The notes beneath the pieces are model-generated. The model saw nothing but the letters and a program-made list of their open reading frames with translations. It was not told where the DNA came from and searched no databases. This document shows positions 891 to 64,000 of a DNA stretch of 64,000 nucleotides, in pieces. Position 1 is the first letter of the stretch; the number at the start of each line of letters is the position of its first letter. The position numbers were made by a program, and so were the translations under genes. The DNA comes from Stegostoma tigrinum. Taxonomy: Eukaryota. Where the stretch lies: the NCBI RefSeq assembly GCF_030684315.1, contig NC_081363.1:69052517-69116516 (forward strand), in the 5' to 3' direction.

Positions 891-1214
891 TAGGTTCCGG
901 CAATCTGATCAGCCAATCTAATTTGTCCTACAGATAGATTTCTAACTTTTGTTTTTACAGTCCATGCGGGTCTCCTTGGCCCAGAACTGGAAGTCAATAC
1001 CGTGTCAGCATTCCAACGCTGATCACTACATATGAAACCTCAGAATGACAGGCGTGCACAGTCAGCCACATAGTTTACAGGGAACGTTGCCTGTAGTCTA
1101 ATGGTTTCTTCCTTGTTATTTACCATAACACCAATCTTCATGTCTGCAAACTTACTGATCATTACCTCTGAGATTTCTGTGGTCCCTGAATTAAATCTCA
1201 GCATAAACCTAGCA

Positions 1215-1533
1215 GGCGGCACAATGGTTAGCACCTCTGCCTCACAACGCCAGGGATCCAGGTTTGTTTCCAGCCTCAGGTGACTGTCTGTGTGGACTCT
1301 GCATGTTCTCCCTGCATCTGTATTTGTTTCTTTGTGTACTCTGGTTTCCTCCCACGGTCGAAAGGTGTGCCGGTTAGGTAGATTAGCCACGCTGAAATTG
1401 TCCATAGTGTCCAGGGAAGTGTAGGCTAGGTGAATTAGTCATGGGATATACAGAGTTACTGGAACGGTATGGGGTTGGGTCTGGGTGTGATTTGATGCGC
1501 CAAAGGCCTGCTTCCACACTGTAGGGACTGTAT
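1215..1533 (+). mobile_element. HE1-like tRNA-derived SINE (V-SINE type)
   Basis: Head ggcggcacaatggttagcacctctgcctcaca; central gtctgtgtggactctgcatgttctccc..tggtttcctcccac; CR1-like tail ggcctgcttccacactgtagggact. Confidence 0.8.
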
Positions 1534-1931
1534 AAATACAGGAACTTTCAGAGTTTATTAAATCAAACAAGATTGAATGATACATTCTTTAGTTTAATAC
1601 ACAGGTGTAGAATGGTAGCAGGTATTGTGTTATCCTGGAAATCTTGGAAAGCTCCATGTACCTAAGCATACTACAACTAACTCATTTTGAAAACACGCCC
1701 ACAATTCCACCCAGGTGACTTCAACGATGAATTTCAACACTTGAAACTGATTCGCACAGCCTTAAGCATGTGTACAAGCCAATTAATTGTTAAAAAAGTG
1801 CATATTAAGGCTCACACTGTGCCCTTTGTCAAAAATCACCATGTTAGTTTTCAAACGGTAATTTTGAAAATATGTCACTATGTTGTATTCACTAATTTCA
1901 ACAAATCAAATCACTTTCAATTAATTGCATT

Positions 1932-2287
1932 GGGAGGCAATGGCCTATTGGTGTTATTGCTGGATATCAATCCAAAAACTCAGCTAATGTCCCAGGCACC
2001 TGGACTCAAATCCTGCCACAGGCAGATAGTAGAATCGGGATCAATTTTTAGAAAATCTGGTAGTAAGAAAACAACTGTCAGGAAAAACCCAGCTGGCTCA
2101 CTAATATCCTTCAGGGAAGGAAGTCTGCCATCTTCACCTGGTTTGGCCTCCATGTAACTCCAGATGCACAGCAATGCAGCTAACTCTCAACTACCCTCTG
2201 CAAGCCACTCAGTTGGATGGCAGTTAGGGACAGGCAATATATGCTGGCCAGCCAGCAATGCTCAAGTTCCCCAAGCAAATGAATTAT
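1932..2287 (+). mobile_element. tRNA-headed Deu-domain SINE (SacSINE1-like)
   Basis: tRNA-like head gggaggcaatggcctattgg; Deu-like core tcactaatatccttcagggaaggaagtctgccatcttcacctgg..gtaactccaga; tail agttagggacaggcaatatatgctggcc. Several other copies occur in the window. Confidence 0.7.
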
Positions 2288-23726: not shown

Positions 23727-26700
23727 ATGCCGGTCTTGTTCACCATCATTGGGATCTCTGCAATTGCTGCTCTTCTGGCAGCATTTGGCCCATATATCAG
23801 GTCAGTATTTTCGCCTAAGGATGAATTCGAAGCCCTTCTTGGCTCTGTAAAGATAAAGTTAAATTGTATGTAATTTTACAAACTGTAAGCAGGCTTTTAC
23901 TTAGTAATGTGGGTTCCAGCCCCTTGAAAAAATGTTACAATTTGTCACGAACAAATTGGGAGTTCAGTTGTATTCGTTAAACTAACACGCAATACAGAAT
24001 ACAGTTTTACGAAATCTGTTTATTTGAATAAGAAGCAAAATAATTGGGCTTTTGTAGATTATTTTCAAAGTACCTTGAGGAATCGTTCGAATTGATTGTG
24101 CAGGAAAGTACATCTTGCCGGTGTATTTTAACCATCTTTTGTTTTCTTGGCTGAACATTTGCTGCGGTTAAGTAAATCAGCCCATTCTCTCTGTACCCGA
24201 ATAAAACTTTGCTTGTAAAAATAAAACCCTTCAAAGTGGTCATTTACATAATCAATCTTTTGTTCGCAGAAACCACTGCCCTGTAATTGTACAACATTTG
24301 CAACGTACTGCACGCAGAAGGCATGGACTTATAATCAGATCATGAGTTTGGGATAATAAAATGTGAGGCTGGATGAACACAGCAGGCCAAGCAGCATCTC
24401 AGGAGCACAAAAGCTGACGTTTCGGGCCTAGACCCTTCATCAGAGAGGGGGATGGGGGGAGGGAACTGGAATAAATAGGGAGAGAGGGGGAGGCGGAACG
24501 AAGATGGAGAGTAAAGAAGATAGGTGGAGAGGGTGTAGGTGGGGAGGTAGGGAGGGGATAGGTCAGTCCAGGGAAGACGGACAGGTCAAGGAGGTGGGAT
24601 GAGGTTAGTAGGTAGCGGGGGGTGCGGCTTGGGGTGGGAGGAAGGGATGGGTGAGAGGAAGAACCGGTTAGGGAGGCAGAGACAGGTTGGACTGGTTTTG
24701 GGATGCAGTGGGTGGGGGGGAAGAGCTGGGCTGGTTGTGTGGTGCAGTGGGGGGAGGGGATGAACTGGGATTTCAGATACCTCTCACTTTGGCTACTTGC
24801 TGTTTCGGCTGATTTTTCAGTCACTGCTTTTCAGGATTAGTTCCTTATTGGATCAAAGGTGTTTCACTTGAAGCTAATAAAATGTGAGGCTGGATGAACA
24901 CAGCAGGCCAAGCAGCATCTCAGGAGCACAAAAGCTGACGTTTCGGGCCTAGACCCTTCATCAGAGCGGGGGATGGGGGGAGGGAACTGGAATAAATAGG
25001 GAGAGAGGGGGAGGCGGACCGAAGATGGAGAGTAAAGAAGATAGGTGGAGAGAGTGTAGGTGGGGAGGTAGGGAGGGGATAGGTCAGTCCAGGGAAGATG
25101 GACAGGTCAAGGAGGTGGGATGAGGTTAGTAGGTAGCTTGGGGTGGGAGGAAGGGATGGGTGAGAGGAAGAACCGGTTAGGGAGGCAGAGACAGGCTGGA
25201 CTGGTTTTGGGATGCAGTGGGTGGGGGGGAAGAGCTGGGCTGGTTGTGTGGTGCAGTGGGGGGAGGGGATGAACTGGGCTGGTTTAGGGATGCAGTAGGG
25301 GAAGGGGAGATTTTGAAACTGGTGAAGTCCACATTGATACCATATGGCTGCAGGGTTCCCAGGCGGAATATGAGTTGCTGTTCCTGCAACCTTCGGGTGG
25401 CATCATTGTGGCAGTGCAGGAGTCCCATGATGGACATGTCATCAAGAGAATGGGAGGGGGAGTGGAAATGGTTTGCGACTGGGAGGTGCAGTTGTTTGTT
25501 GCGAACTGAGCGGAGGTGTTCTGCAAAGCGGTCCCCAAGCCTCCGCTTGGTTTCCCCAATGTAGAGGAAGCCGCACCGGGTACAGTGGATGCAGTATACC
25601 ACATTGGCAGATGTGCAGGTGAACCTCTGCTTAATGTGGAATGTCATCTTGGGGCCTGGGATGGGGGTGAGGGAGGAGGTGTGGGGACAAGTGTAGCATT
25701 TCCTGCGGTTGCAGGGGAAGGTGCCGGGTGTGGTGGGGTTGGAGGGCAGTGTGGAGCGAACAAGGGAGTCACGGAGAGAGTGGTCTCTCCGGAAAGCAGA
25801 CAGGGGAGGGGATGGAAAAATGTCTTGGGTGGTGGGGTCGGATTGTAAATGGCGGAAGTGTCGGAGGATAATGCGTTGTATCCGGAGGTTGGTAGGGTGG
25901 TGTGTGAGAACGAGGGGGTTCCTCTTGGGGCGGTTGTGGCGGGGGCGGGCTGTGAGGGATGTGTCGCGGGAAATGCGGGAGACGCGGTCAAGGGCGTTCT
26001 CGATCACCGTGGGGGGAAAGTTGCGGTCCTTAAAGAACTTGGACATCTGGGATGTGCGGGAGTGGAATGTCTTATCGTGGGGGCGGAGGCGGAGGAATTG
26101 GGAGTAGGGGATGGAATTTTTGCAGGAGGGTGGGTGGGAGGAGGTGTATTCTAGGTAGCTGTGGGAGTCGGTGGGCTTGAAATGGACATCAGTTACAAGC
26201 TGGTTGCCTGAGATGGAGACTGAGAGGTCCAGGAAGGTGAGGGATGTGCTGGAGATGGCCCAGGTGAACTGAAGGTTGGGGTGGAAGGTGTTGGTGAAGT
26301 GGATGAACTGTTCGAGCTCCTCTGGGGAGCAAGAGGCGGCGCCGATACAGTCATCAATGTACCGGAGGAAGAGGTGGGGTTTGGGGCCTGTGTAGGTGCG
26401 GAAGAGGGACTGTTCCACGTAACCTACAAAGAGGCAGGCATAGCTGGGCCCCATGCGGGTGCCCATGGCCACCCCCTTAGTCTGTAGGAAGTGGGAGGAG
26501 TCAAAAGAGAAGTTGTTGAGTGTGAGGACGAGTTCAGTTAGGCGGATGAGAGTGTCGGTGGAGGGGGCCTGGTCGGGCCTGCGGGACAGGAAGAAGCGGA
26601 GGGCCTTGAGGCCATCTGCATGCGGAATGCAGGTGTACAGGGACTGGACGTCCATGGTGAATATGAGGTGTTGGGGGCCAGGGAATTGGAAGTCCTGGAG

Positions 26701-29700: not shown

Positions 29701-32700
29701 ATCCGCTTGTTGAATTCTTTCATGGGATGTCAGTGTCACTGGCAAAGCTGGTATTTGCTGCCCATCTCTAATTGCCCCTGAGAGCAGTTAAGAGTTAATC
29801 ACATTGCTGTGCATCTGGAGCAAATTTACCATGCAAGGCAACTAGACCAGGATGGTACATTTCATTATCTAAAAAACAGATGAGTTTTAACAACATTTGT
29901 TAGCTATATGGTCTCTGTTATCAATTCGAGCTTTCAGTTCCAAATGTTGTTGGTTCAGTTATATTACCACTGTACCATAATGTCCCCGACTCGTGCAATA
30001 GCTCACATACCCTAGGAGTTTTGTCAATGTCTGTATCCTAAAATCCACAAATAAAATAGGCTTGGGTCAAGTTTCATTTCTGTCAATCTCTCAAATAAAA
30101 TTGAAGTAGTGAACTTGGATTTTTCGAAAACAGTAGGTCTTTTTCAACTTGACTATTCAGTGCACTTCTGGTTAGCCCTCCTTTCCCATCTTAAACTTGA
30201 GATGTGTACGACTCTGCTGCCCTCATTCAAATTTTCTCCAAGTGTCATTGGCCCAGTAAGGTTACAGTGGTTCCGTGGATCTAGCACCCTATCCTTCCAC
30301 CAACTGGCACAATACCCACCAGCACCCTATTTATCTGGCATCCTACCCCCCCCCCCCCCCCCCCCAACCCCAAGGAGACAGTTTGCCTTTCTCTGACAGT
30401 TCTACATGAAGAAAGAAGTGAGAGGATGGAAATATGCTTTGCATTTCTGAAAGAGCCTTGAGTGGAATCTCCTCTCAGAATGTGCATCCCCCTTTCTTTG
30501 GTAAAGCATGGCCAGAGTAGCAATCTGCATGGGATTGCCCCTCTCTGGAAAATCTGGGCCAGTGTTTCCACGATAGTGTGTTGATAAGCAGCTACATTAC
30601 AGTCAAATCTGAGATCGAGCACAGAAATTTGTAACTCTATTCAAGTTACTACAAAATGATTTAGCTATGGAATACCCTCTGCCATACCTTTGCACTTCAC
30701 TTTTGTAAGTGTTTGAAAAAATACTAAGTTTTTTACATTATTAAGATTAATATTTTGGAATGCAATTTTAATCACCTTCTTAAATAGATAATCTTACATT
30801 CTTGACTGCTGAGAAATAACTAAACCGTTCAAATAGGTAGCTAGCGTAATTTGCAACTGTGATACAGTTTACATCAGCTCCAGATATTTACAATTGCCTT
30901 TTGTTCAGTATATTTACTATTTTTGCTTAAAAAATTCTACTTTGACTCACTTCACCTTGTGATGTAATTGCAGGATGGACTAGAAAGTTGTCTAGCACAT
31001 GGGAGTCAACACTGAACTCTAATTAGTTTATTCTAAGATGCAAATGTTATTCCACTTCTCGCTCCTTAAATGAATGTTACACAATGTTCAAAATTCCACA
31101 TAAATTATATACACCCCTTCTTTAGAGATCTAACTTAGCCATTTGTTTCCTATTCCTCAGAAGATGCCTCTTCTCTTAATTCAAACATTCAGGACTTTGG
31201 AGAAGGACCTTGACCATCTTAGCCTGAGTCTTAGGAGAAGTTTTCTCTAACCAGGACTGATTTTTGATCTTTACCTTCAGTTGAATTTTCCTGTTCATCA
31301 GATATGCCTCTCTGACTATAAACTCATATCCAAAGTGATTTTACTTGCATTGTGTTCATCCCAACTATCCAACTCCACAGACTCATTTGAATCATCTCCC
31401 TCCTCCTCCCTGAAACACTTGCTCTGTTTTCTCCTTTAGAGCCCAGGACACTAGATGAAGAGCGCAGTAAAGTGGCCTGGTGTTCCTCTGAATCCAAATG
31501 TTGGCCTATTGTTCAAGACGAAAGACTTTTGAAACTATTTTTTAGCAAGAGAAACAGATTGTCTGACTGCTGGCTCACTGGAAGCTTATCCAATCCAAAT
31601 TTATTTGGCTAAGGAATCCTGGCCTTGCCACCAAATCAGGCAGGAGTCAATGTCAAGTTAGGGACAAAAACAAGCTGCAGATGCTAGAATCCATGGTAGG
31701 CAAACAGGAGGCTGGGAGAACACAGCAGGCCAGGCAGGAAAAGAGCAGTCAACGTTTCAGGTATCATCCTTCTTCAGGACTATCCCCCTTTCCTCCAGAT
31801 GCTGCCTGGCCTGCTGTGTTCTCCCAGCCTCCTGTTTGCCTACCACGGGCAGCATCTGCAGGAAAAGAGCAGTCAACGTTTCGGGTATCATGCTTCTTCA
31901 GGACTATCCCCCTTTCCTCCAGATGCTGCCTGGCTTGCTGGCAGTCAGCGCCAAACTGGAACCAGTTTACTCCGGTCTATTGATATGTACAAGTAACATT
32001 TGTTTGTAACTCGTAGGTCAGCTCAATGAAACCTGTGTAAGCTGTAGATTTGGGATACAAAGTTAAATTGAATAAAGAAAGCAACAACCCTGAATATCAA
32101 TCAGGTCAAAATATTTACACTTGCCTCCCAAGAGTCACTTAAAAGCCTGCCCCAGCCTTTGGCCACCTGACCTTAATGTTGCCTTTTCTGTGGCTCCTGT
32201 GAAGCATCTTAGGGGTTTCTTCTATTTAACAGCATTATATAAATATGAAAGTTATTATATAAGCAGACAATAGCGGGGCCAAAAGAACAGCGATATTTCT
32301 ACTTAACTGTCAGGGGTTTACAAAACCAGAAGAAAACTTTGAGAGCCGGCGCCTGCTCTTATTAAATATGCCACTTCCTCATCTTCAATGCTCACTTTTA
32401 CATTAAATAGTGCAATTGCTTGCCATTTATGTAATGAAGTTACAGTCTAGACCTTTGTTACAAGTGTGCAAAAATGGCAGGCAGGAACATGTTACCACCT
32501 ATCAATATAGGTGAACCTTCATGATTAAGACTGTCTCCTCCACTCTGCCACACACCAAATGTAATCTCCAAGGAGACACCGGCATTTAATGGCTTAGTCA
32601 GTGATGGGGAGGCTTCTTTCGGTTCGGAGTGGCAGTGTTTCCTTGCGTGGAGGAGCTGTTTCCTGGCGTGGCAGTTTTGTCCAGTGTTTGAGGTCACATC

Positions 32701-35700: not shown

Positions 35701-38700
35701 ATCTTGTATGCAGGTGTTGTTGTTTATTATGATTAAAAAAATATTTGGGCAGTTATTCAAACAATAACGTGAGGCTGCCAGGTTTCTTCAGCAAAGAACA
35801 GAAGTTTACTACACAAGATGTAAAACAACAAAAAAAATTATCTAAATGCACACCGTTAGAAAATCAACTTAAATCATTCAGCAGAACAAAATTTCAACTT
35901 AGAAGATACAACCAATGCATTTAGATTCTTTTCTCCATCTTGTTGTTGAGCTGGCGTAGGCAGCTGTCTCTGGTATGGAAACCAGCTACTGTAGAGGTAG
36001 CAGCAAAATCACCTCAACCCAGCTAGCAAAATATGCCCTTGCAGTAATATATCTCACACTTCAATACAGGACCACACTAAATCAATAGTACCTAAAAAAA
36101 TATGCTTTGTTTTTAGAATCACAGAATCTCCACAGTAGAGAGAGGCCATTCAGCTCATCCAGTTCTGCACCGATCCTCCAAAGAGCATCCCCTACCCTAC
36201 CCAGTAACCCCGCATTTCCCACAGCTACTCCACCCTATCACAATCTACACATCCGTGGACACGGGGGCAGTTGACCAATCTGCCTAACCCACACGTCGTT
36301 GGACTGTGGGAGGAAACCGGAGCACTCGGAGGAAACCCACGCAGACGCAGGGAGAATGTCTGTGTGGAGTTTGCACAGTCTCCCAAAGCTGGAATTGAAC
36401 CTGGGTCCCTGGTTCTGTGAGGTAGTAGTGATAACCACTGAGCTACTGTGCCTCCCATTCTGGTAATTAGCAACCATAACTAAAGCAGGATATCCTGTCC
36501 CTTTGGTTCTTCACAGGTGCACGTGTAATCATAGCCTGCAGAGATCTGACCAAGGCAGAAGCTGCAGCCGATGAGATTCAGAGAGACACGGGGAATAAAC
36601 AAGTCATTGTTCGGGAATTAGATCTTGCCAACACTGAGTCTGTACATCAGTTTGCTGAAAATGTCATTAAAGGTAATTCAACAAAGCAAATGATATCATA
36701 TAGAGTATAGATGGGGATACAATATAGAAGTATTTTGTGATGTGATGTATGGCATGAGCTCTCGTTCAGGATTCTCTTAAGGTTCAGTTGGCACGTGGAA
36801 TGCAATGTGGGAATGTGTGAGAGGTTATGATTACGAGGTTGTGATTAGAACAGAAATGTAGACTATTTTCTGAATGGGGAAAGGCTTTGGAAATCTGAAG
36901 CTAAAAGGGACTTGTTAGCCTGAGTTCAGGATTCTCTTCGGGTTAACATGCAAGTTCAACTGGCAGTTAGATAGGCAAATACAATATTATTCATTTCAAG
37001 AGGGCTAGGATGCCGGTCTCTGTGGTTAGCAAGGGTCGGTGTGGACTTGATGGGCCAAGTGGCCTACTTCCACACTGTCAGGATTCTATGCTTGGGCTGT
37101 AGGTCATTATAGACTTCTGTTCCCGAAAACTATCCAGCACCCCGTCATGGCTTTGTCATTTCTTGGCCTGTTGAGACGAACAAGTAGAAATTGACAGCCA
37201 CGTTTTTCTCATCACCTCCTGATTGACTTCAGGCAAACCAGATATCTCTTTTCTCTCATCTATCAACTCCTGTGACATTCTGCCCTTTGCAGTGCAGGAG
37301 TCTCTTGGCCTGCTCTGAAAGAGAGTCAGGGAGTGGTGAAACAAACAAGCGATTAAAAACAGAAAATGCCAAAAATACTGAGCGTCTATAGAGGAACAGA
37401 ATTAAACTTTCAGGTCGGTGACCTGCTGACCATTTCCAGCGTTTTCTGTTTGTATGTCAGATTTCCAGCGTCTGCAGCTCTTTGCTTTTGTATTAATAAA
37501 CTGGTAAACCCGACTGCAATGATATGTTCCCATAACTTGGCACCGCATCGTAAAGAACAGATCCAACCGACACATTTTCCATATTGTGACTTATTTTCTC
37601 ATTCCCAGTTCTGTTTTCTGACAGAGGAGAAGCTCATCAGTATTTTGATCAACAACGCTGGGGTGATGATGTGCCCCTACACAAAGACGACTGATGGGTT
37701 TGAGATGCAATTTGGTGTAAATCATCTGGGTAAGTTATAAATGCAGACTGCATTTCTTTAAACGAAAATCTGTGACTCGGAGTGCAAAAAAAAAGTTGTT
37801 GCATTGATCAGATGATTTCTGCATTTCCTATGAATTTTCAGTTTGCAACAGAGTAAGGTCATTTACGATTCTAATCACAACAGAATTTTCCAGAGAACTG
37901 AACAATCTAAGAAAGATCTCAGAGGTAGAATGTTTTGCATTCGTTTGCCTTTAGGTCATTTCTTGCTGACCTACCTGCTTCTCGACCTCATGAAAAGGTC
38001 AGCCCCAGCTCGCATCATTAACGTATCGTCCTTCGCTCACGTTTTCGGTCGAATCAACTTTAAAGACCTTCAGAGTGAAGAGAGTTATGATGAGGGCTTG
38101 GCTTACTGCCAAAGTAAACTGGCAAATGTACTGTTCACTCGGGAATTGGCCAAGCGCCTCAAAGGTAAGATGCATATTGTATCTCCAGATGTTGGTTGAA
38201 ATATTGCATAAAGATCACTTTGTTCAAAGCCAATCAATTACGGTTCAAAGCATAATTAATAAATGCTGGCTTTTTCAGGCTCATCAGATAACCATACCCA
38301 ACAGAAGCTGAAAGTAACCAAGGATCCAGAGTGAAGTATGGCTCCATGCACATCCTCAGACAATAGTCTCGGACTGTGCAGTGAGCAGGGATGTTTCCAT
38401 TGGTTCGAGTTGTCCTGTGCAAGCAGGGGAAGGCAAATGGCTAGAAATTCAGTTCCTGATCAGAATAACTTTGGTGCCAACAAGTAATATATGTATGTGG
38501 GTAAGATCAGGGTTGCCAGCGATCGGCGCATGGTCAAAATTCTTTCTTCAAGACATATTTATTTGTAGAAGGCCTATTTTAAATACAGTTAAGTCGAATG
38601 AAAATTAAGAATATCCAGCCCCGTTTTGCACTTTACAGTTGACGGAGACCCATTTTTGCCTTCACTCAATCCATGTTTGCTATTGCAAAGGCTACTGCAA

Positions 38701-41700
38701 GAACCAAATTAAGACCAAAGTTTCAAAGAAACTCCTCAATTCTACCAAATGATCTGAACGTAACATGTTAGAGTTCAGCCCTTGTGTTCTCGCCTCACTG
38801 AGCCCTGGAAATGTCCTGGATGACCTCAACCAGTGAAACACCAGGATCCAGCCTGTATCATGTCATTAGCCCCTTAGGTTTTTGTCCACAGGTTCCAAAC
38901 AAAAAAGGCAGGACTGTAAATACATCCCCTAAAGGTCTTGATGGCTTATTTTGCATCACTGGAAAGTATTTAATTACTAACAGTTCTTTTCTCGTGGTCC
39001 GTTTACTCACTGCATTTTGAGAGTACATTTTAGTGTAGAAGAAGAAATGTTGTGGAAGCTGCCTGTCTGTCTCTGCTGGTGAAGACAGACCATCTGGAGA
39101 GGACCGCACTGCAGCTGGTATCTGAGTGATTGTGTCCAAGTGCTAGTCCATCAGGCATCATGTTAGCGATTGTAGATTCACTGATGCTGGGTAATCAGAG
39201 ACCTGCACTTAAGTAAAATGGTTTGAAGGGCTTCCAGTGATTCAATTGGTTAAGGCAGTGATTAGCCGAGTACACAAGTTACAGGTTTGATTTATGTTGA
39301 CAGCAGGATCCCATGAGTCTTCATGCGGTACTGCAAAAACTGCTGACACTTCACTTTTGTGTCTTTGCTTGACGCAGGCACTAAAGTCACTGTGAATTCT
39401 GTGCATCCGGGCTGTGTCAAATCCGAACTAAACAGGCACTCCTTCGTCATGTCCTTGGCATGGAAGATTCTGACGTTTCTTATCAAAACGCCAAAACAGG
39501 GGGCACAGACGAGTATATACTGTGCTGTGGCTGAGGAGTTGCAAGATATTTCTGGAACACACTTTAGGTTTGTACATAATTCCATTTGTAAATTGAATGA
39601 TGAAACTTGGATGAAATTGCAAACAGCCAATTCCATCAAGCCTGATTCTTATTTTATTTTTTTTTAAAAAGTGTGATGCCAACCTTGCAAAAACTCTAAA
39701 GGAGGAAATGGGTTTGGAGTTTTGAAATGAGCTTAAGTTAACATTGTTTCATGGGATATGGGAAACAATGTAAACAGTGGAGAAGCAGGATTTGTTAGTT
39801 TTCCCCCCCAACTGCCCTTTAACTGAAGGGGCCTGCCAAACATTTCAAAGCACAGTTTTTAAAAAAAAAAGTCCACCTCATTGCTGTGAGTCTAGAATCT
39901 CATGGAAGTTGGACCTAATAAGAAGAATGGCAGATTTCTATTTGTCTACAAAGACAATAGTGAGCCAGAGGGTTTTTTAAAAATTAAAACAACAATCGAC
40001 CATAGTTTCATGGTTACCATCACAGACTAGCTTTCAATTCTAGTTTCTTAAAAAAAATTAATTGAATTTAAATTCCTCCAGCTGGCATGGTCGGGGGTGG
40101 GGGAGAGACTTGATCCTGTGTCCCCTAGCGCATAAGCTTAGGCCTGTTGTTTGCTAATCTGGTGACATTACTGTACCACCGTTTCCCCTTCGTGTTGCTC
40201 AGCTCTAAGTATTAAAATCAAACGTGGTGCCCTTAGACACAAAGTGGAGATTTCTTACATTTTTAGGTAATGAGCGTGAGACATGAACACTAGTTCGATG
40301 TTTCCACTTTCGGCACAGATCATCCTCATTGAACATGCAGCATGAAACACAATTTTAACATTTTTTGTTTGTTTATTCTTTGGGGCCTGTTTATATTCCC
40401 ACTTCTGTATCAGCATTTGCATGCAGTGTCAATATCTGTCAGTAATGTACATGTGCATCCATTACTGCATCTGAGGGGGAGGCGATCACTTAGTGGTATT
40501 TTTGCTGCACTGTTGTTAATCTACAGACCCAGGTAATGTTCTGGGAACCTGGGTTTGAATCACGCCATGACAGATGAATTTGAATTTATTTTAAAATAAT
40601 CTGCAATTAAGAGTCTCATGACAACCACCTACCCATTGCAGATTGTCAGAAAAATTCATCTGGTTCACTAATGACCTGTAGGGAAGGAAACTGCCATCCT
40701 TACCTGATCTGGCCTACATGGACTCCTGACACACAGCAATGTGGCTGACTCTTAACTGACTGGATAATAAATGCTGGCCTAGCTAGTGACATTCTCATCC
40801 AGTGAAGGAATTAAAAAAGAAATGACACATGCTTCCTTCAGTTGTGACTGTGCAGAAGGATTGTGTTTTTTTTGTGACTGTGGCCTTGCTTCGCTGCTGG
40901 ATCTGCTTCTGAGTTCTTGCTTCTCTTCAAGGATGAGAGTTCCTGGACTCTATCTAGTGACAGATGCCAGTCAGTGCAAGTAGGTCTTGGCATCCAACTG
41001 CATTTGACCGACATCCGTCACTTAATGGGGCATGGTCAATATAACAGTACCTTATGGTAAGAGAGTGGTGTTATGGTGTTTGAGCTGATGGCAGCACCAG
41101 ACAAGTCATGTCTTAGAAGGAAATCGGCTGGATATGTTTAATTTTTGCAGTGGTTTGTCACTGAATCATGATCATACAAGGTTGTTGATATTCTTTTAAC
41201 AACAGAATAAGCTCACTACACAAAACAGGAAAGATGAAAAAAAGCTATGAAACAGAAAGGTCTTATCACGAATAGCAAAACAAAGTTTCAGCATGTTTCC
41301 CAACACTGTCTGCAGCTACACAATTCTACAGAAATATCATTCTTTTCTCAACTCTAATTTTATCTCCTCAGTTGTATTAATTTGAAGACTTCCACGACTC
41401 CCAGCTCAGAAGCTCCACAAATAATGCTTTGGTTAAGGTGGAACTAAAACTTCATTTTGCTCCTTGGAGAAAGCGGTTTTCTCTTTGGAACTGAAATAAA
41501 AATCTAAAGAGTATCTACAGCCTTGTTTGGTCATGAATCAGCGACCACCCATTGTGGCTAACAACTGCAAAAACTAAACATGACCCAGAATGAAATCTGG
41601 CTGGATATGACTTGTCCAGTGCTACCATCAGCTGGCAACATCATAATACCATTTACATTTACTGTAAGGTACTATTATATTGACTATGCTCCTTTAAGTG

Positions 41701-42268: not shown

Positions 42269-42311
42269 ACTAATTGCAAAATGAAATTCTAAGTAAACAC
42301 AGTATAGGCAG

Positions 42312-42462
42312 CAGCAGGTGCTGGAGTCAGAGATAACACAGGGCAGAGCTGAAGGAAAACAGCAGGCCAGGCAGCAGAGGAGCAGGAAAGATAACGTTTT
42401 GGGTCAGTCCCCTTCAGGAAATGTCAACTCTCCTGCTCCCCTGCTCCACACTGCGTTACCTG
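42312..42462. mobile_element. PLE terminal-repeat-derived fold-back mini element just after the RDH stop codon
   Basis: gcaggtgctggagtcagagataacacagggcagagctgaagg..aacgttttgggtcagtccccttcag, then the inverted ctcctgctcc..ctccacactgcgttacct. Confidence 0.55.
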
Positions 42463-54100: not shown

Positions 54101-57100
54101 TAGCAGAAATGTTTAAAATTGAACAGCTTTGCACAAGGAATAGGGGATGACTATTTCCTCTGACTGGGAAATTTGTGATGAGATGTGAGCAATCTTAGAA
54201 GTGAAACTAAGAGAGGGCACAGTAAAGGTTGAAAATTCCTTTAAAAGAGTTACTGCAGTTTGGTGGGTCTTGGGACAGCGAATACATGAGGCCAAGATCA
54301 TTGAAAATTGAATGGAAAGCAGATACACATATGAGCAGGTTGTGGGGTAAAAGCACAAAAATGTTTAAGCTTTAGCTTGTTTCACCCGCAGGTTAGCACA
54401 GTTGGCACATATCAAGAGACTATAAACATCTACACCTTTCAAGTTCTTCTACATTTGACTATATCTGCTATACACCTCCCCATTCTCATCCAGTTTTATC
54501 CTGCAATGTTTCATAGTCTTTGTCAAGCTTGCTTGTAGCATCCCTTGACCCCATTTGTTCCGCGTACTATTTCCTCAGTTCAAGTCACTTGTGAACTTGT
54601 TAAAAACAGTACTTCAACATGACCCTTACTTACCATATCTTTCCAATCCAATCAACTTTTCTCTTCATTCCCATCCTTTGCATTCTGTCCTAAATATCAT
54701 CCTGTTAACCCAAACATGTTTTTCTTCATATATTTGACATGACATATGACCTTTCCTTTACATCTTCCTATGGATTAGATCCAATTGACTCAAATTTCTC
54801 CAAATCCTCAATAATGTTCTTCTCTGCTATAGACTCTGATAGTCCACCAATGACCAACGTTCCCTTTAAGCCACTTTGGTGTGCAGCATACCACACAATG
54901 CAAACAAGTCACAAACAAAAACACTGGGCCTTTTTCAGTTGCCTGCTGAATAGTTATCACAGAACAAAGTAAAAATGAGTAGGAATATTTTTAATGAGTG
55001 TCCTGGAACATACTGCGTGTTTTTTCCCCCCAAAGTTACAGCCTCCAATATTCCCTCCCCAGCTTCTGAATCCTACCACATTAAGCTCTGCATCTGGGCG
55101 ATTTGATTCTCACAAGTCTGAATAAACTTTTTGATACAATCTTCTGTTGAATGTTGACTGTATTGCAAGGACCTCTGATAACTACAATATCCACCTCTTC
55201 TGGACAAGCACGAGTAAAGTACTTAGCTAATGTAAATTCCAAGCATCACTCTCCACTGCTCGTCTGCCTCCATTATCTGTTAACAGCACTCCTTTGCCTG
55301 CTGTCATACTATGAATGTGCCCTTTTCAAATCTTTAGGGCCCTACATGTCAATTCATTCTTTAATGCTTCAACTTTCCTGTTTTCGCTTTTGGTAAATTT
55401 TCACATTTCTTGATTTGTTTTGGATTTCCTTTTCCTGAATTAAATGTAATTTCCTGTGGTTGGTTGGCTCACTGAACCACAACATCCACAACCCAAGCTA
55501 CAAATCTACTCTAAAACCTTAGATGCACTTTGCTCCAGTTTAAAATTTAATGGTTTCACCACGTCAATCCACTGCACCCAAAAATACATTCATGCTCTTT
55601 TGTAGAACAATATTTTTAAAGCAGCTGCTTTTTCCTCTACTCCACTGCTAAAGGTGTTGGCCAATACTGAGTTAAGCTGTCTTAGCTTGAGCAATTTCAC
55701 CCTAGGGCAGATTGTTTTAATGTAGATCTAGACTTGTGGTTATGGCAGTAAAACTCCACTTTATCTCATTCTTCCACCTGCTCAGCAATTTGGACTGATT
55801 GCAGCATCCTACCATCTGCCCGGCTGAGATTAGATCAAACAACTCAAGAGAACAGGGGTCAAAGCTGGAACATTCACAGCTGGACAGATCAGGTCATCGA
55901 GGGAGCTACAAAAGCAAAATACTCTAAGATCTGAAACAGAAACAGAAAATGCTCAACATTCACAGGAAGCCTGGCAGCATCTGCAGAGTCAGAAAAAGAA
56001 TGGAAGACCATAGGGATTGGCAATGAGACAAGCAAAGTGGCAAATGGTGTGTTGACGGTGTTGCATAAGGGTCTGAAAGGGTTAATATTAAGGAATGCTA
56101 CAGCACCTTCCATTATGATGATATCATATGAACTTGGTGGGGGAACAGCTTAGGATCTCAAAACGGTCTTCCTCAGATATTGCAACAATGCTTAATCCAT
56201 CAATGTAATTTCCAGTTAGTTGTTAACATACTTGTTTAAAACAAGAGCTTCTTCTTGTTGGACCAGCAAGTTTTTTTTTTCTCACCACACCAGACAAAGC
56301 AGACTGTGTACATCCCTACACTAAAAATGGATGGATGGTGGCAGCATACCTACTCCACAGTGAGCAATAGTGCAGACAGTCTCTTACAACATGGAGATCA
56401 GTGATGAGGACTGCTCATACAACATACAGGGGATAGGAATTGTAGGATCCTGAATACTGCATTCAAAGCCAAGAAAATGACAGAAATGGAGCAAAAAGCC
56501 AAACCAGCAAAGATAAACAAAATGAAATGGAGACACAAGTTATGATCTGGAACTGCTGAACTCATTGCAGAATGCTCTAAAATTACAGGGGCGGGGGGGG
56601 GGTAATATTTTCATTACCTGAATAACTCTGAAAGAGATTCCAAAACCTTCTTCAATATTTTTGCCTCCAAGCAGAACCTGCAGGACAGAACATGAATTTC
56701 TGCATTATTTCTTTGACAACTAGATCAATTCAATGTGCTCCTGTGAATAACGTTTCAAAGGGCAAGGCAATGGTCTCATGTAGACTATTAATCCAGAGAC
56801 CCAGATAATATTCTGGGGACCCAGGTAGGAATCCGGCCATGGCAGATGGTGGAATTTGAATTCGATAAAACAAGAGAGTCTGGAATTAAGAGTCTACTGA
56901 TGATCAGCAAAAGCCCATCTGATTCACTAATATCCTTCAGGGAGGGAAATCTGCCATCCTCATGAGGTCTGGCCTACAAGTAACTCCAGACCCACAGCAA
57001 TAGGGTTGACTCTCATCTGCCTTCTGAAATGGCCCAGCAAGCCATTCAATTGATTGTACCAATCACTACAAAGTCTCAAAGAAATAAAACTGGACTGATC

Positions 57101-60100
57101 ACCAGGCATCGACCTAGGCGTTGGAAAAGACAACGGCAGAAACAGCCCTGTCACCCTGCAAAGTCCTCCTCACTAACATATGGGGGCTACAGCCAAAACT
57201 GGGACAGCTGTTTCACAGACTAGTTAAGCAACAGCCTGACACAGTCATACTCACAGAATCATACCTTACAATGTCCCAGACACCGCCATCACCATCTCCA
57301 GCACAAGGGGTGGCACAGTAATATACAGCTGGGAGGGTGTTGCTCTGGGAGTCCTTAGCATTGACTCTGGATCCCATGAAGTTTCATGGATTCAAGTTAA
57401 ACATGGGCAAGGAAACCTCCTGCTGATTACAACATACCGCCCTCCCTCAGCTCATGAATCAGTACTCCTCAATGCTGAGCAACACTTGGAGGAAGCAAGG
57501 GTACAAAATGTACTCTGGGTAGGGGGGATTTCAACATCCACCACCAAGAGTGGCTCGGCAACAGTATTACAGATCGAGGTGGTCGGGGTCCTGAAAGACA
57601 GCTGCTCGACTGGATCTGCGGCAGGCAGCGAGGAAACCAACAAGAGGGAAAAGCATACTTAACTTAATCCTTACCAATCTGCCTGCTACAGTTGCATCCG
57701 TCCGTGACCGTATCGGTAAGAATGACCTCGGCACAGTCCTTGTGGAGATGAAGTTCTGCCTTCACATTGAGAATAACCCAACATGTTGTGTGGCATTATC
57801 ACAGTGCTAAGTGAGACAGACTTTGAACAGATCTAGCAACTCAAGTCTGAGCATGCACAAGGCGCCATGGGCCATCAACAGCAGAAGTGTACTCCAGCAC
57901 AATCTGTAACCTCATGGCCCTGGCATACCCCTTACTTAACCATTACCATCAAGCCAGCGGATTAACCCTGGTTTAATGGAGTGTGCAGGAGGCTATGCTG
58001 GGAGTAGCACCAGACATACCTAAAGATGAGGTAACAACCTGGTGAAGCCACCAAAACAGCAAAAGCAGCAAGCTATAGACAGAGCTAAGCAATCCCACAA
58101 TGAACGGATCAGATCTAAGCTCTGCAGCCCTGCCACATCCAGTTGTGACTGGTGGTGGATGATTAAACAACTCACAGGAAGACGAGGCTCCACAAATATC
58201 CCAAACCTCAATGACAGAACGGCTCAGCACATCAGTGCAAAAGATTAAGACTGAAGTTTTCACAGCAATCTTCAGCCAGAAATGCTGCATGAATGATCCA
58301 TCTTGGCCTGCTCCAATGGTCCCCAGCATTACAGACACCAGTCTTCAGCCAATTCGATTCACTTCATGTAACTTCACTTAAGAAAAGGTTGGAGGTACTG
58401 GATACTGCAAAGGCTATAGGCCCTGATGTTATTCCGGCAATAGTACTGAAGACTTGCACTACAGAACTTGCCGCTCCCCTAGCTAATTTCTTCCAGTGTA
58501 GTTACAACACTGGTATCTACCTGACAATATGGAAAATTGCCCAAGTATGTCCAGTACAGAAAATGCAGGAAAAATACAATCCAGCCAATTACCACCCCAA
58601 TCAGTCTACTCTCGATCATCAGTAAAGTGTTGGAAGGTGTGTGATCAACAGCACTATCAAATCGCACATGCTCAGCAATAACCTACTCAGTGACACCCAA
58701 TTTGGGTTCTGCCAGGGCCACTCAGCTCCTGACCTCATTACGTTGGTTCAAACATGGACAAAAGAGCTGAATTCCAGAGGTGAGGTGAGAATGACAGCCT
58801 TTGATATCAAGGCTGCATTTGACTTGAGCGTGGCAACACGGAGCCCTAGCAAAACTGGAATCAGTGGGTATCAGAGTGGCAAACTCTGAGTCGTACCTGA
58901 TATATAGGAAGAAGGTCATGGTTGTCGGAGGTCAGTCATGTCAGCTCTAGGACAATGCTGCATAAGTTCCTCAGGGTAGTGTCCTAGGCCCAAACATCTT
59001 CAGCTGCTTCATCAATGACCTCCCTCCAACATAAGGTCATAAGTAGGGATGTTCATCAATGGCTGCACAATGTTCAGCACGATTTGCAACTCCTCAGACA
59101 TTGAAGCAGTCTGTGTCCAAATGCAACAAGACCTAGATAATATCCAGGCTTGGGCTAACATTCACTAACACACTAATACCAGGCTATGACAACTACCATG
59201 AGACAATCTAATCACCACCCTTGACACTCAATGGTGTTACCAACACTGAATCTCCCACTATCCAACATCCTGGGAATTGTCATTGACCAGAAACTCAACT
59301 GGACTCACCACATAAACACAATGACCTGCTCTTATAGCCAGAGTCTAGGAATACTGCAGCAAGTAACTCACCTCCTGACTCTCCAAAGCCGATTCATCAT
59401 CTACAAGGCACAAGTCAGGAATGTGATGGAGTACTTCCACTCTCCTAGACGAGCGCAGTCCCAACAACACTCAAGAAGCTTGACACCACCCAGGACAAAG
59501 CAGTCCGTTTGAGTGGCACTGCATCCACAAGCATCAACTACCGCCACCATTGACACTCGGTAGCAGCAGTATAGTCTGCAAAAATTCACGAAAGACAGCA
59601 CCTTCCAAACCCACGACTACTTCCATCTAGAAAAACAAGGGCAGCAAATATATGGGAACATCACGACCTTCAAGTGCCCCTCCAACCACTCACCATTCTG
59701 ACTTGGAAATATATCTCTGTTCCTTCACTGTTGCTGGGTCAAAATCCTGGAATCCTTCCCAAATGGCACTGAGTCAATCCAAAGCAGGTGAATTGCAGCA
59801 ACTCAGGAAAGTAGCTCACCACCACCTTCTCAAGGGCAAGTAGGGATGGGCAATAAACAAAAACAGGAAGAACTGCCGATGCTCTAAATTAGGAACAAAA
59901 ATAAATATGCTGGAAAAGTTCAGCAGGTCTGGCAGCATTTGTGAAGGAAAATACAGAACAGTTCTAAGGAAGGGTCATCGGACCCAAAACGATAACTCAC
60001 TTCTTTCCTTCACAGATGCTGCCAGGCTTGCTGAGATTTTCCAGAAACTTTGTTTTTGTTCCTGTTGGGCAACAAATGCTGACCAGCCAACAAAGCCCAC

Positions 60101-62600
60101 ATCCCACAAAATAAATAAAAAGAAACACACTGCATCAAGATAATAACCTTGCACGCGACTTCCATCTTCATTTTGGTATTGCCAAAGAGACTGGCTGGGG
60201 GTCCACAGCTCTTTGAAGTCCCCGAGTTTTCACAACGATGCAAGAATTTGGTTACTTCAATCTGCAGCTCAATTGTATTCATGTACCTTTATTTAAAAAA
60301 AAAGCAAAAAGGTTCTACAAATTAGAAGTTCAAATGACATGTAACAGCTAGTTCTGGAGTTTATGGCTGGTTTACTGGCTTATTTTAGTCTGGGCATCAC
60401 ATTAAAATACAATTAAACTCCCAGAATTCATTTTGCTTTACAGCAGCTCAACCAGAACTGGTATACCATTGCGTTCCATGATAATGAAGAAAAGGTGCAT
60501 TTGTTCTACTTTTCACCACCTCAACTCCATTTTAAACAAATAGCAAAGATGGGAGTTTGTGACCTTCCTCCCTTTAATCATAACTTTTAGTACAATGGTG
60601 AGAAACAGATGACCAAATTAAAACCTTTGTGCTGCCAGTTTACCTGATCGGAGCCTTTTGCAAATTTGTTCTCAGAAGGTAGGTGATGCTATCGATGCTG
60701 CATTTATTGCCCAATCCTAGTTACTCTAAAATAATGGCAGATTCTACTACCTTGAACTTTGGTCACATTTGTGGTGACAGTAATTCCACAAAAGATGGAT
60801 AGGGAATTTCTTTGTAATAACTAGGATCATTGTCCCTTCTGCTTTGTGCCTTCATCCTAAAATGATAACTTTACAAATACCGTACATTTTTCTAACAGTG
60901 AAATATTAGGAGGGTGGTTCCTTTTAATTTGTTTTAATTATACAGAAAAAGATGATCTAATTCACAAGCTACTATATTTTTCTTCCCCTAGAAGAACAGA
61001 AAAACACTTCAATAAATTAGTTAGTAAAAATAATGATTACAACTGTTTCTTGAGTTATTAAAATCAGTTACACATCTTTTGCAGGAGTTTTCAGGATTTT
61101 GAGAATTAATAATTATTGAAAATAAAAAAAACTTCCCAAAATGGATGCCTCTGCCATAGTAAGCTGCTAATTCTTGTTTTGTTCATTAACGAGAAATCAT
61201 TGCCAACCTTGCATAAATTTGCACTCACTCTGCCAAACATGACAAAATGATACCTATACTTTAGTATGTACTGGGTGGCATTTACATGTGCATTTGTGTT
61301 TGGGGAGTGGGTGCATGAGTACGGAGGCAGGAGTGGGTAGGCGTGTTTGTACATGAGACAGCAAGAGAGAAAGTAAGTGTGCAGGAGGAGTTTCAATGTG
61401 CTTTTTCAAATTTACTATTATTATTAGTCCTCCAGAGTGTTTCCATTTGGAGAAGACACAGTGATGTTGTGGTCATGTCACTTGACTCATAACCAGACTG
61501 TCTGGTAGTAAAGTTCTGGGGATGCAGGCTTAAATCCCACCACAATAGCCAGGGGAATTTAAATTGAATTTGTAAGTAAATTTAAATTAATAGATAGCTA
61601 GCCTCAGTAATGGTGACCAAGAAACCATACTGACTTAACAAGCTGACATTTCGGGCCTTGACCCTTCTTCGGAATTTCACCCATTTCTGAAGAAGGCCCG
61701 AAAACGTCAGCGTTCCTGCTCTTCTGATGCTGCTTGGCCTGTGTTCATCCAGCTCTACACCTTGCTATCTCAGATTCTCCAGCATCTGCAGTTCCTATCA
61801 TCTCTAAAACTATTGCTGACTGTAGTTCACAAAAGAACTTAGTTCATTAATGTCCTTTACAGAAGAACCTTACCTAGTCTGGTCTGTACATGCTTCCAGA
61901 TCTACAGCCACATGGTCAACTCTGAACTGTCCTCTGAAAATGGGTCAGCAAGCCACTCAGTTTAACCAGACTGTTATGAAAGGTTGTACTGCAGCATCCC
62001 AAAAGGTGACTCACCTCCTCTTAAGGGCAATTAAGGGTCGGCAACAAATACTGCCTCCACAGTGACATAAACATTGCAAGAAGGAATTTTTTTTAAAAAC
62101 CTACCTTGAGACATCAGCTGCAGACATTTGCTTGCGAAAAGAACTGGTAATTTTCCTTCTTGACGAACTACGTTGGGACACTTCTTGCAAATATGTTTTC
62201 AGGTGACCCTTGGCTTCTGTCAGCCAACCTTGATTGACTCCAAGTTCCTTATAGGATTCTGCTTTGTGACTGAAAAATCTGATGCACGTCATAGCTGCTC
62301 GCATGTGGTCCTGAAATGAACACATCACTTGTGACACTGCTCCATACACAGTCGAAACCCATCTGAAAAGGGCCCATCACACACGGCAAAAATTACAATT
62401 ACCTTCATAAATTGCTGCAGATCATACAGAATGTTGAAGAAACCCCTCATTTGCAAATGTTTGCAGGATGCAATCAAATAGCAACTCCATTTCTCCAGGC
62501 TTGGATCCATATGTTCCAGCAAGTTTTCCAAAGCATGCAGTTTGCCACTTTCATAACTTGGTTTGAAAATCCCTTGCATGAACACCTCTTCAGGGCAACC
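48175..62600 (-). CDS. ZFYVE26: Zinc finger FYVE domain-containing protein 26 (spastizin), last 6 coding exons; gene continues beyond the window
   Basis: Exons (minus) 62600-62403 (GCPEEVFMQGIFKPSYESGKL..LQQFMK), 62310-62105 (DHMRAAMTCIRFFSHKA..SAADVSR), 60286-60148 (YMNTIELQIEVTKFLHRCE..MEVACK), 56677-56618 (VLLGGKNIEEGFGISFRVIQ), 53906-53724 (AFQLDAAAVY..QLLKCVSESG), 49022-48972, 48378-48175 (IRAFLLCRKYRSAYLVAVK..*). That is 6 internal exons plus the terminal exon as listed; GT-AG and phase-consistent. Confidence 0.95.
49918..50562. mobile_element. Putative solo LTR, copy 2
   Basis: Homologous to 22312-22886 (ggaccagactaaacccc..aaggcaagtgtaagg..ttgtgttccagatgcaat..tatcatcaca). Confidence 0.6.
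53215..53640 (-). mobile_element. CR1 LINE 3' fragment
   Basis: MDAPSYSIFKARTDRFLVS; tail acaagaacacaagaaataggagg. Confidence 0.65.
56761..60120 (+). mobile_element. Composite retroelement: tRNA-like head + Deu domain + decayed EN-RT ORF (CR1/L2 group) + SINE-shared tail
   Basis: 56761-57050 matches the window's DeuSINEs. APE endonuclease start NIWGLQPKLGQLFHRLVKQQPDTVILTESYL at ~57175. RT motifs KAIGPDVIPAIVLKTC, QFGFCQGHSAPDL, FDIKAAFD, VPQGSVLGP, LGIVIDQKLNW. Tail caccaccttctcaagggcaagtagggatgggcaataaa..gcccacatcccac. Confidence 0.85.
59858..60065. mobile_element. Fold-back PLE-derived mini element inserted in the LINE tail
   Basis: ~60-bp imperfect inverted arms (aggaacaaaaa..tgtgaaggaaa / tttccttcacaga..tttttgttcct) around degenerate CTAAGGA..AAAACGAT. 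Flanked by tgggcaataaa / tgggcaacaaa, a possible TSD. Confidence 0.65.
61456..62095 (+). mobile_element. Deu-domain SINE interrupted by an inverted PLE terminal-repeat pair (61640-61805)
   Basis: SINE head 61456-61635 and Deu core/tail 61806-62095. The insert carries two opposed degenerate hammerheads (61643-61672 minus; 61687-61710 plus). Confidence 0.7.
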
Positions 62601-62633: not shown

Positions 62634-62850
62634 AGAAATGGAAACAGCAACTGCTGGAGAAACTCAGCAGGTCTGGCAGCATCAGTAGAGAGAAACACAG
62701 AGTCAACTTAAACTATGTTCCAAAGAAGTCCTACTGAGCTTGAAACATTAATTCTGTTTCTTCTTCCAAAAATATTGCTATACGTGCTTAGTTTATCCAG
62801 CACTTTTTATTTTTATTTTGGTTCTCCAGCATCTGCGGTATTGTGTTTAT
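62634..62850. mobile_element. Fold-back PLE-derived mini element, old
   Basis: tgctggagaaactcagcaggtctggcagcatc..gaaacacagagtcaac / gaaacattaattctgtttc..gcttagtttatccagca; same family as 59858-60065 and 37355-37490. Confidence 0.55.
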
Positions 62851-63202: not shown

Positions 63203-63528
63203 GGAGACAGTAGCATAGTGGTCATGTCAAAAGGTCGGCCACAGAAAGAAAGGAAATAATGTTCAACTTTACAGTCCTTCAAGTTAAACTTGGCTTCAGA
63301 TTTCCCTAAGGTCCCCTTAAGAGTTTTCGGTGAGGTGTAAAAACCTATCTAGCTTACTAGTGTCCTTTAGGGAAGAAAATCTGCCATATTTACATTGTTT
63401 AGTTTACAAGTGGTTCCAGATCAACTGTTAATTGCTTTCTGAATGCTAGAGTGCCAATCAATTCAAGGGGTGGGCAACAAATGCAGGCCTTGCTAGTGAT
63501 ACCCACGTTCCTTCAAAAAATAAAAAAA
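63203..63528 (+). mobile_element. Deu-domain SINE, decayed
   Basis: ttactagtgtcctttagggaagaaaatctgcca..tgggcaacaaatgcaggccttgctagtgatacccacgttcc. Confidence 0.6.
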
Positions 63529-64000
63529 ATCCCATTTTTCCTTTTGTTCCCATGTAAGTATCTAAGAAGCCTTAGAGACATCTATAATATTCAACTGAAT
63601 GTAGCAAATTCCACATTTGAATGGGTAAAGAAATTTCTTCCAAACTCTCCATGGAATAAGCAACCACTTCTATTTATAACCATTAATTTAGGATCAGCCA
63701 AAAAAATACAGAAATGTTAAGATTCAGGAAAACAAATTTGGGAACTGTTTGGCCAGATTGCACCAAAGAATTGATTTGAGAGACAGAACATCTGTAGAAT
63801 GTTAAATAACATTGCGTTCTCCTGCCTATGGGTGTTCTCATATTCCTCAGCTAGGAAGCCAAGAGATGCCTGCATTCTATCTTCAGTCTTAATTGGGAAA
63901 TCCAATAGCTGAATCCACATCATCAATATCCAGGGTATATCATCAATGCACATTACAAATCATCCTTTTACATCAAAGTAATTTTATACAACATGTACGC

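Follow-up and report, generated by a model that had tools for sequence, protein, structure and literature searches.

A tRNA-headed Zenon LINE of sharks and rays, likely transcribed by RNA polymerase III, and its SINEs

The element at 56761–60125 of the 64,000-nt window (the whole stretch of DNA analyzed here) belongs, as a dead copy, to a LINE family that is abundant in sharks and rays. Comparison of its copies and relatives suggests that this family, the elasmobranch Zenon, is a tRNA-headed 3.3-kb LINE that RNA polymerase III (Pol III) probably transcribes over its full length, and whose translation probably starts without a cap or an AUG from an inherited hairpin that mimics an anticodon. 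Taken alone, Pol III transcription of the family appears likely; its combination with tRNA-mimic initiation comes close to an even chance without quite reaching it. The LINE family is known, and its architecture is undescribed in the papers searched.

Head, body, ORF and tail as one unit

The window copy lies on the forward strand and opens with a tRNA-like head (56761–56850; family positions 1–100), in which the A box is mostly deleted and the B box (56823–56834) is damaged. In the family majority sequence, both boxes agree with the Pol III consensus. An Rfam search with four copies returned no tRNA hit and no ribozyme, the hits being chance hairpin families. The head is followed by an A-rich linker (56851–56881), the length of which differs from copy to copy, and by a body that is common to every free SINE type and does not match Deu, Meta or UCON3 (56882–57023). 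A hairpin (57024–57051) with a 7-nt anticodon-like loop (57034–57040, middle triplet AGC) separates the body from a leader (57065–57165), which lies in the ORF frame, encodes a basic peptide and has no in-frame ATG. The single frame for the APE endonuclease (EN) and reverse transcriptase (RT), which is of Zenon lineage, spans 57166–59840 with the RT core at about 58398–59295. The first part of the 3´ tail (59830–59857), which is common to the SINEs, overlaps the ORF end, and the remaining tail with its A-rich end lies at 60066–60125. The two parts are split by a later insertion of an unrelated 208-bp palindromic repeat (59858–60065), which has 60-nt arms that are 85% complementary and is present in 22 of 240 shark loci.

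The first-pass annotation correctly placed an EN-RT frame without ORF1 behind the body on the same strand, after a leader of about 115 bp. What it called a whole LINE ORF is a decayed frame, broken by 27 frameshifting indels relative to the family majority. Pfam gave no match for two open window frames, and matched Exo_endo_phos_2 and RVT_1 in the frames of sister copies; APE endonuclease and RT lie within one ORF, as in Zenon (CR1 group). The 430 nt between the 5´ end and EN contain no ORF1, as in Zenon.

We assign the element to the elasmobranch Zenon LINE of Stuart et al. 2026 (PMC13343379) because of its 5´ identity with the rows published there; our RT tree held no labelled Zenon RT. Zenon is defined in that paper by the absence of ORF1 and a poly-A tail, and lack of ORF1, an A-rich end and a length of about 3.29 kb are common to the published family and ours. 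All seven elasmobranch rows, from five sharks and rays (RhiTyp_Zenon-1, CarCar_Zenon-1, ScyCan_Zenon-1, SquAca_Zenon-1 to -3 and HypSab_Zenon-1), begin with the tRNA-like head, and by eye the first 400 nt of RhiTyp_Zenon-1 (whale shark) match the family majority near letter for letter. The hagfish and coelacanth rows have a different start and T runs within their first 400 nt. In the RT tree (FastTree, 70 of 150 rows), the element groups with a lancelet protein and the metagenome locus L242 (SH 90); the CR1 elements of sharks and birds lie elsewhere in the tree. A PDB search returned only general relatives, L1 and R2 among them; a weak protein search with the EN piece gave no longer relatives, and the body pattern had 0 matches in viral contigs. 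The term 'tRNA' occurs 0 times in the main text and supplement of PMC13343379 and 'polymerase III' 0 times in the main text, and the head, the T-run shortage, the start element and the link to SINEs are undescribed in these parts. Elsewhere in the open-access literature searched, a tRNA-like head or a Pol III LINE is touched on in one sentence, on RTE-1_DAn, a LINE reported with a tRNA-like sequence that differs in belonging to the RTE clade (PMC5786205).

The junction between body and EN frame is not unique to this locus. A 261-bp junction query gave 4547 candidates in the 3.2-Gb genome of the window, and all 40 scored matches, with independent flanks, span the junction (244–261 of 261 bases covered; 85–87% identity for the 39 non-self matches). 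The alignment starts at the head in 34 of 39 fetched copies, the flanks of which are unrelated, and reaches the tail in 22 of 39; column support is about 0.9 inside and 0.5 outside a 3.29-kb unit. Copies were also chosen by protein alone to keep the head out of the selection. Among 29 copies picked by EN (from 150 scored), 14 reach the head, nine begin in the body, four in the leader and two at the EN start. The 39 copies picked by RT (from 124 scored; a 40th locus, L199, was dropped, its best match being a neighbouring copy) comprise six that reach the head, five the body and one the leader, and 27 truncated in the ORF. Copies chosen in these ways have no unrelated 5´ UTR and no ORF1, and the 68 ORF-picked copies include no headless full-length family. 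Upstream of 24 truncated copies we found no shared new 5´ region beyond antisense CR1 and a common palindromic repeat. An apparent alternative 5´ UTR in three of these 24 was rejected as another inserted element, being antisense CR1 RT sequence joined at three different breakpoints.

Subfamily variants link sites in the head and body to sites in the ORF, and contigs from three further organisms (B, C and D) run across the junction. Most of the 19 full-length copies shown have A-rich ends; no clear target-site duplications were seen in these 19 by eye. Head, body, ORF and tail stayed together as they spread in several subfamilies. Both repeats are abundant, and a truncated LINE might have come to lie behind a SINE at the window locus by chance; with the junction shared by all 40 scored loci and by the published consensus rows of five species, this account has practically no probability.

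The body had been named a Deu core, and the element the candidate autonomous parent of the Deu-domain SINEs; neither identification is supported. By eye, the body is unlike the published Deu core (PMC7245038, Fig. S4), and true Deu-type repeats are separate in the same genome. Twelve loci were taken from 22 found with an 18-nt Deu motif, and several of the 12 have Deu-like flanks. BLAST and nhmmer gave no match between them and the 5´ 460 nt of the element, with a profile that is weak and lacks an independent positive control, and they match the window SINEs in nothing except an unrelated inserted repeat. The comparison with Fig. S4 and with the 12 loci, which covers the Deu/Nin core of about 130 bp out of the full 330-bp vertebrate Deu region, largely refutes a Deu identity of the body. 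Three of four short Deu motifs in the element are at chance level and one reaches P = 0.04; motifs of Meta and UCON3 likewise do not exceed chance. Nishihara et al. are said to have included SacSINE1 among the DeuSINEs in 2006. SacSINE1, of 463 bp and with a reported L2 tail (PMC5499810; PMC2746220), resembles the present family in its tRNA-derived head, shark host and CR1-group partner, and differs in the Deu core, which the body does not match, and in its L2-2_CM-type tail, the tail here being the 3´ end of this Zenon. A Deu parent, for which the general layout alone speaks (tRNA head, conserved body, CR1-group tail), is very improbable, and our finding carries no information on the origin of the Deu domain.

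Scarcity of T runs in the sense strand

Vertebrate Pol III terminates at runs of at least four T. The family majority (3283 nt) contains no TTTT and four TTT, compared with 22.9 expected (Poisson 1.6 × 10^-6), along with 50 AAA, 47 CCC and 38 GGG. TTT is the scarcest triplet among those without CpG, and phenylalanine is encoded by one TTT and 16 TTC codons (p = 0.002). Each of the three subfamily majorities likewise has no TTTT. The shortage does not depend on a consensus: 92 natural copies contain 100 TTTT compared with 432 expected, and 1046 AAAA compared with 1242 expected. The observed/expected ratio of TTT is 0.18 here and 0.61–1.72 in 44 related ORFs (those with long matches, from 78 loci), the closest of which has a ratio of 1.03 and seven TTTT. 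Eight shark CR1 fragments (6480 nt) carry 109 TTT and 27 TTTT. T runs are missing from the sense strand only.

The zero count of TTTT is unremarkable by dinucleotide (P = 0.14) or codon (P = 0.23) shuffles, because the shortage already lies in TT and in codon choice, which the shuffles keep. Two relatives are likewise poor in TTTT (L253 with none and L248 with one), and one of six organism-D changes in EN makes a TTT. The copies start exactly at the head, as type-2 Pol III promoters would give. The B-box pattern was found in 0 of 44 regions upstream of related ORFs, several of which are short, and ARAGORN at a lowered threshold gave noise on the relatives. In the linker, 24 of 71 copies have at least four T in a run of variable length, which is absent from the published Zenon rows. 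We read these runs as slippage after insertion; a master with such a run would stop Pol III.

Coding history and a candidate start element

Apart from one shared frameshift, the majority frame extends over about 975 codons, and its first ATG does not come before residue 170. Shared non-CpG variants are synonymous in 26 cases and nonsynonymous in 29, compared with 399 and 1609 among singletons (p = 9 × 10^-6). Of the 13 shared variants that lie before the first in-frame Met, 7 are synonymous (p = 0.007), as are four of the six changes that organism D has in EN. Purifying selection acted on the ORF in the past, including the part upstream of the first in-frame ATG, and from the synonymous excess in this upstream part we infer that EN was made without an in-frame AUG. 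Two one-base deletions are common to many copies, and the frameshift in the first majority sequence is a deletion of this kind, so coding-dead masters spread too. All 124 RT matches that were scored lack an intact ORF, as do the 39 long copies.

The hairpin behind the body is also present in L242 and L272, which lack the tRNA head. Its distance to the EN start is similar (−129 in the family, −134 in L242 and −137 in L272), so it is a native 5´ UTR element of the LINE. The leader is homologous to that of these headless relatives (P = 0.033 and 0.001, respectively). L242 has an open frame of 1004 codons, no ORF1 and normal T runs; an ATG just before its EN counts against an AUG-free start. L242 and L272 are close kin, and the element is known from two lineages rather than three. 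In the family and both relatives, the AGC of the loop faces an in-frame GCT 11–16 nt downstream, an arrangement with a chance of about 0.5% per 200 nt. GCT is the first codon of the leader in the master and has become ACT in the window copy by CpG decay. The facing pair is intact in 5 of 29 testable shark copies, and the remaining shark copies are CpG-decayed at this codon (14 CGCT, 16 TGCT, 25 CACT). Loop position 2 varies (30 CTAGCAA, 20 CCAGCAA); no compensatory change was seen in the loop–codon pairing, and the hairpin/GCT element was found in 0 of 9 more distant relatives. An RNAalifold run on 12 decayed copies (L060 misoriented) was left unused, as neutral decay masks covariation.

The AGC hairpin and the in-frame GCT form a candidate AUG-free start. 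They resemble PKI of the dicistrovirus IGR IRES, in which an anticodon-like loop faces an in-frame codon before an AUG-less frame (PMC3517527; PMC3894237). The difference is that the sequence here suggests a PKI-like module alone, PKII and PKIII being the IRES's own. Such IRESes are raised as a possibility for non-LTR elements in PMC3894237.

Two other accounts of how the family is transcribed and translated have to be weighed. One takes the element as a Pol II LINE, the head being a passenger that was captured once and kept within an internal Pol II promoter or as a TFIIIC site; T runs would be rare for reasons of RNA stability or the avoidance of cleavage or splice signals, and translation would proceed by leaky scanning or a frameshift from an out-of-frame ATG in the leader. 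Such an ATG is seen by eye in six of the seven published elasmobranch rows (PMC13343379), and 24 of 71 copies carry the T runs in the linker that follows the head. In the accounts of PMC5786205 and PMC10886601, moreover, coding LINEs are generally Pol II units and short non-coding SINEs Pol III units, and the restriction of SINEs to 100–700 bp, which PMC10886601 ascribes to Pol III processivity, counts against a Pol III LINE. This account has difficulty with a depletion that concerns T alone, and this only in the sense strand of the headed lineage, since T runs occur in Pol II relatives, in shark CR1 and in the first 400 nt of the published hagfish and coelacanth Zenon rows; nor would it lead copies to begin exactly at the head. 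We consider it unlikely.

The other account keeps Pol III and gives up autonomy: a 3.3-kb 'long SINE', with an ORF that is a relic, would depend for its copying in trans on a headless Pol II Zenon distinct from it. The frameshifts common to many copies, by which coding-dead masters spread, the missing in-frame ATG, the failure to find an intact copy and the 29 of 55 shared variants that change a residue all fit it. Against it stand the synonymous excess among shared variants and between species (4/6) and the 68 ORF-picked copies without a headless full-length family, and intact ORFs, few as they are, have been counted in headed families (3/612, 1/1419 and 1/294; PMC13343379). Its probability is lower again than that of a Pol II LINE, and Pol III transcription of a coding LINE is the reading that we carry forward.

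Free SINEs and the origin of their body

Four SINEs in the window, all on the forward strand, had been cited as free units of about 350 bp with the head, body and tail of the element. The sharing is borne out by mapping to family positions, which places the head (from about 56761), the body to 57051 and the 3´ tail in both; all four map to family 1–325 plus the last 60–110 positions. The description as clean 350-bp units does not fit two of them, which are interrupted. The SINE at 1932–2285 is of type A (family 1–319 and the tail from 3215), and that at 40475–40820 is a short form without hairpin, similar to type B. The copy at 61456–62087 is of type C, in which the beginning of the LINE leader and more of the LINE 3´ end are retained, and is interrupted by another repeat; that at 63203–63529 is degenerate, with an interrupted head. 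Among 60 body-bearing loci, type A, which joins family position 319 to 3215, accounts for 31, several of them degenerate, and type B (294 to 3219) for seven. Type C (about 330 to 3166) was found at two loci and the L137 form (353 to 3189) at one; the other 19 are fragments or extend further, into the LINE leader or the ORF. The same loose ends of the SINE forms are seen in organisms B–D. Types A and B are 370–400 bp long and have their own diagnostic positions. The free copies have the features of tRNA-derived SINEs, namely A and B boxes (judged against the Pol III consensus), no coding capacity, a length within 100–700 bp, a tail shared with a LINE and replicating lineages of their own; the 3.3-kb element departs from them in size and coding, and is not a SINE.

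Three of the four breakpoints (A, C and the L137 form) retain LINE-native sequence, and the best explanation of these forms is deletion in the LINE or a template jump. Type B, which breaks just before the hairpin, could have arisen likewise or could itself have supplied the head and body. The ages of SINEs and LINEs are biased by how the matches were chosen and were not used for direction. The earlier proposal of a Pol III-headed, single-ORF LINE whose internal deletion gives the SINE gains indirect support from the T-run and breakpoint data and from the comparison with the headless relatives.

The opposite direction is a serious candidate for the origin of the body, somewhat less probable than not. 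A pre-existing SINE similar to type B (head and body, 1–294) would have been fused onto the LINE 5´ UTR at the hairpin, and deletion would account for A, C and the L137 form alone. Such a fusion bears on where the body came from and does not conflict with Pol III transcription. In type B the break coincides with the point at which homology to the headless relatives becomes detectable, body positions 130–340 have no significant match in the UTRs of the relatives (P 0.16–0.79), and SINEs A and B share states at positions 5, 150 and 225 that most sampled LINE copies lack. The LINE-native sequence in A, C and the L137 form points the other way, as does a weak resemblance by eye of body 240–270 to the L242/L272 UTR at similar spacing. 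We saw no SINE with this body and another tail and no outgroup SINE, and Zenon is known to give deleted derivatives (PMC6740152).

Deleted Zenon derivatives and SINEs are known in butterflies (PMC6740152; PMC6685494), and the Zenon SIDE Persaeus resembles the SINEs here as a short element made of the 5´ part and 3´ end of a LINE (PMC6740152). The bipartite LINE-derived SINEs (Bov-tA, AfroSINE and SINE2-1_ACar; Kojima 2018, PMC5786205) likewise combine a LINE 5´ part with a 3´ end, and their body comes from the LINE 5´ UTR. In the model of Kojima 2018, which lists RTE, Ingi, Vingi and R2 only, the head is added after the deletion. In contrast, the coding LINE of elasmobranchs already carries the head, so one deletion would give a complete SINE.

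In the history that we favor, the hairpin/GCT element would already have been part of the 5´ UTR of an ancestral Zenon without ORF1. A template switch before the shark–ray split may then have exchanged the 5´ end of this Zenon for a head derived from a tRNA, with or without a SINE body attached. Uncapped translation would have made the Pol III promoter usable, and TTTT would subsequently have been removed from the 3.3 kb by selection. Several SINE families would have arisen by internal deletion, or by template jumps in which the 5´ part was joined to the 3´ tail, and the same RT would copy the SINEs in trans, as it would frameshifted full-length masters. In full, this makes the family an autonomous coding LINE with an uncapped 3.3-kb Pol III RNA and an ancestral tRNA-mimic IRES, which one deletion turns into a SINE; as a whole we give it slightly less than an even chance.

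If true, the elasmobranch Zenon would give rise to an mRNA of about 3 kb that is a natural product of Pol III, against the divide between Pol II LINEs and Pol III SINEs drawn in PMC10886601 and PMC5786205. It would be a vertebrate LINE that has held on to a tRNA promoter in both sharks and rays and has cleared its sequence of Pol III terminators, and would point to a compact cellular element for cap- and AUG-independent starts. Part of the SINE body is a LINE 5´ UTR element, outside the RTE and Vingi cases, and the family would offer a direct route to the birth of SINEs and would trace a SINE body to a source that is known.

Zenon-family copies and other repeats in the window

The window contains two degenerate SINE copies of the Zenon family (an elasmobranch LINE and its linked SINEs) in addition to the four at 1932, 40477, 61456 and 63203 listed in the first-pass annotation; both lie on the minus strand, at 29707-29820 and 39870-40094. 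Another SINE, distinct from the Zenon-linked ones and presumably V-domain/HE1-like from its appearance, is present in two copies (1219-1462 and 36201-36443). A separate 1.2-kb repeat occurs in several copies, in both orientations and 80-96% alike, at 9688-11225, 18798-21178 and 24351-26446. The short end common to this repeat is also found at 15171-15303, 17689-17778 and 42304-42416, as well as at 61694-61805, within the free SINE that begins at 61456. A MITE-like palindromic repeat of ~200 bp with 60-nt arms is located at 59858-60065, and related pieces are located at 62652-62780. This palindromic repeat is present in 22 of 240 shark loci analyzed.

Headless relatives and CR1 neighbors

The apparent 5´ UTRs of two headless relatives, the metagenome locus L242 (452-760) and L272 (368-600), open with GGGTAG, as does the shark Zenon head; beyond this motif, the rest of the shark head does not align to L242 or L272 (P = 0.17 and 0.997, respectively). 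In three truncated shark copies (L213, L219 and L233), antisense RT sequence of CR1, another shark LINE, adjoins the Zenon part on its upstream side. The three differ in their Zenon breakpoints and have nearly identical CR1 registers, a pattern suggestive of an element derived from CR1 whose end is fixed. A young CR1 copy with an open frame of 593 aa (L062:3921-5699, minus strand) served as a control.

Coding capacity of the Zenon masters

An annotated horn-shark zinc-finger protein model (P0047) contains an 85-aa piece of the Zenon EN region, which is probably a gene-model artefact. One-base deletions at Zenon family positions ~2205 and ~2861 are each common to many copies (for example, L034, L043 and L172-L174), which indicates that coding-dead 3.3-kb masters were copied in trans.
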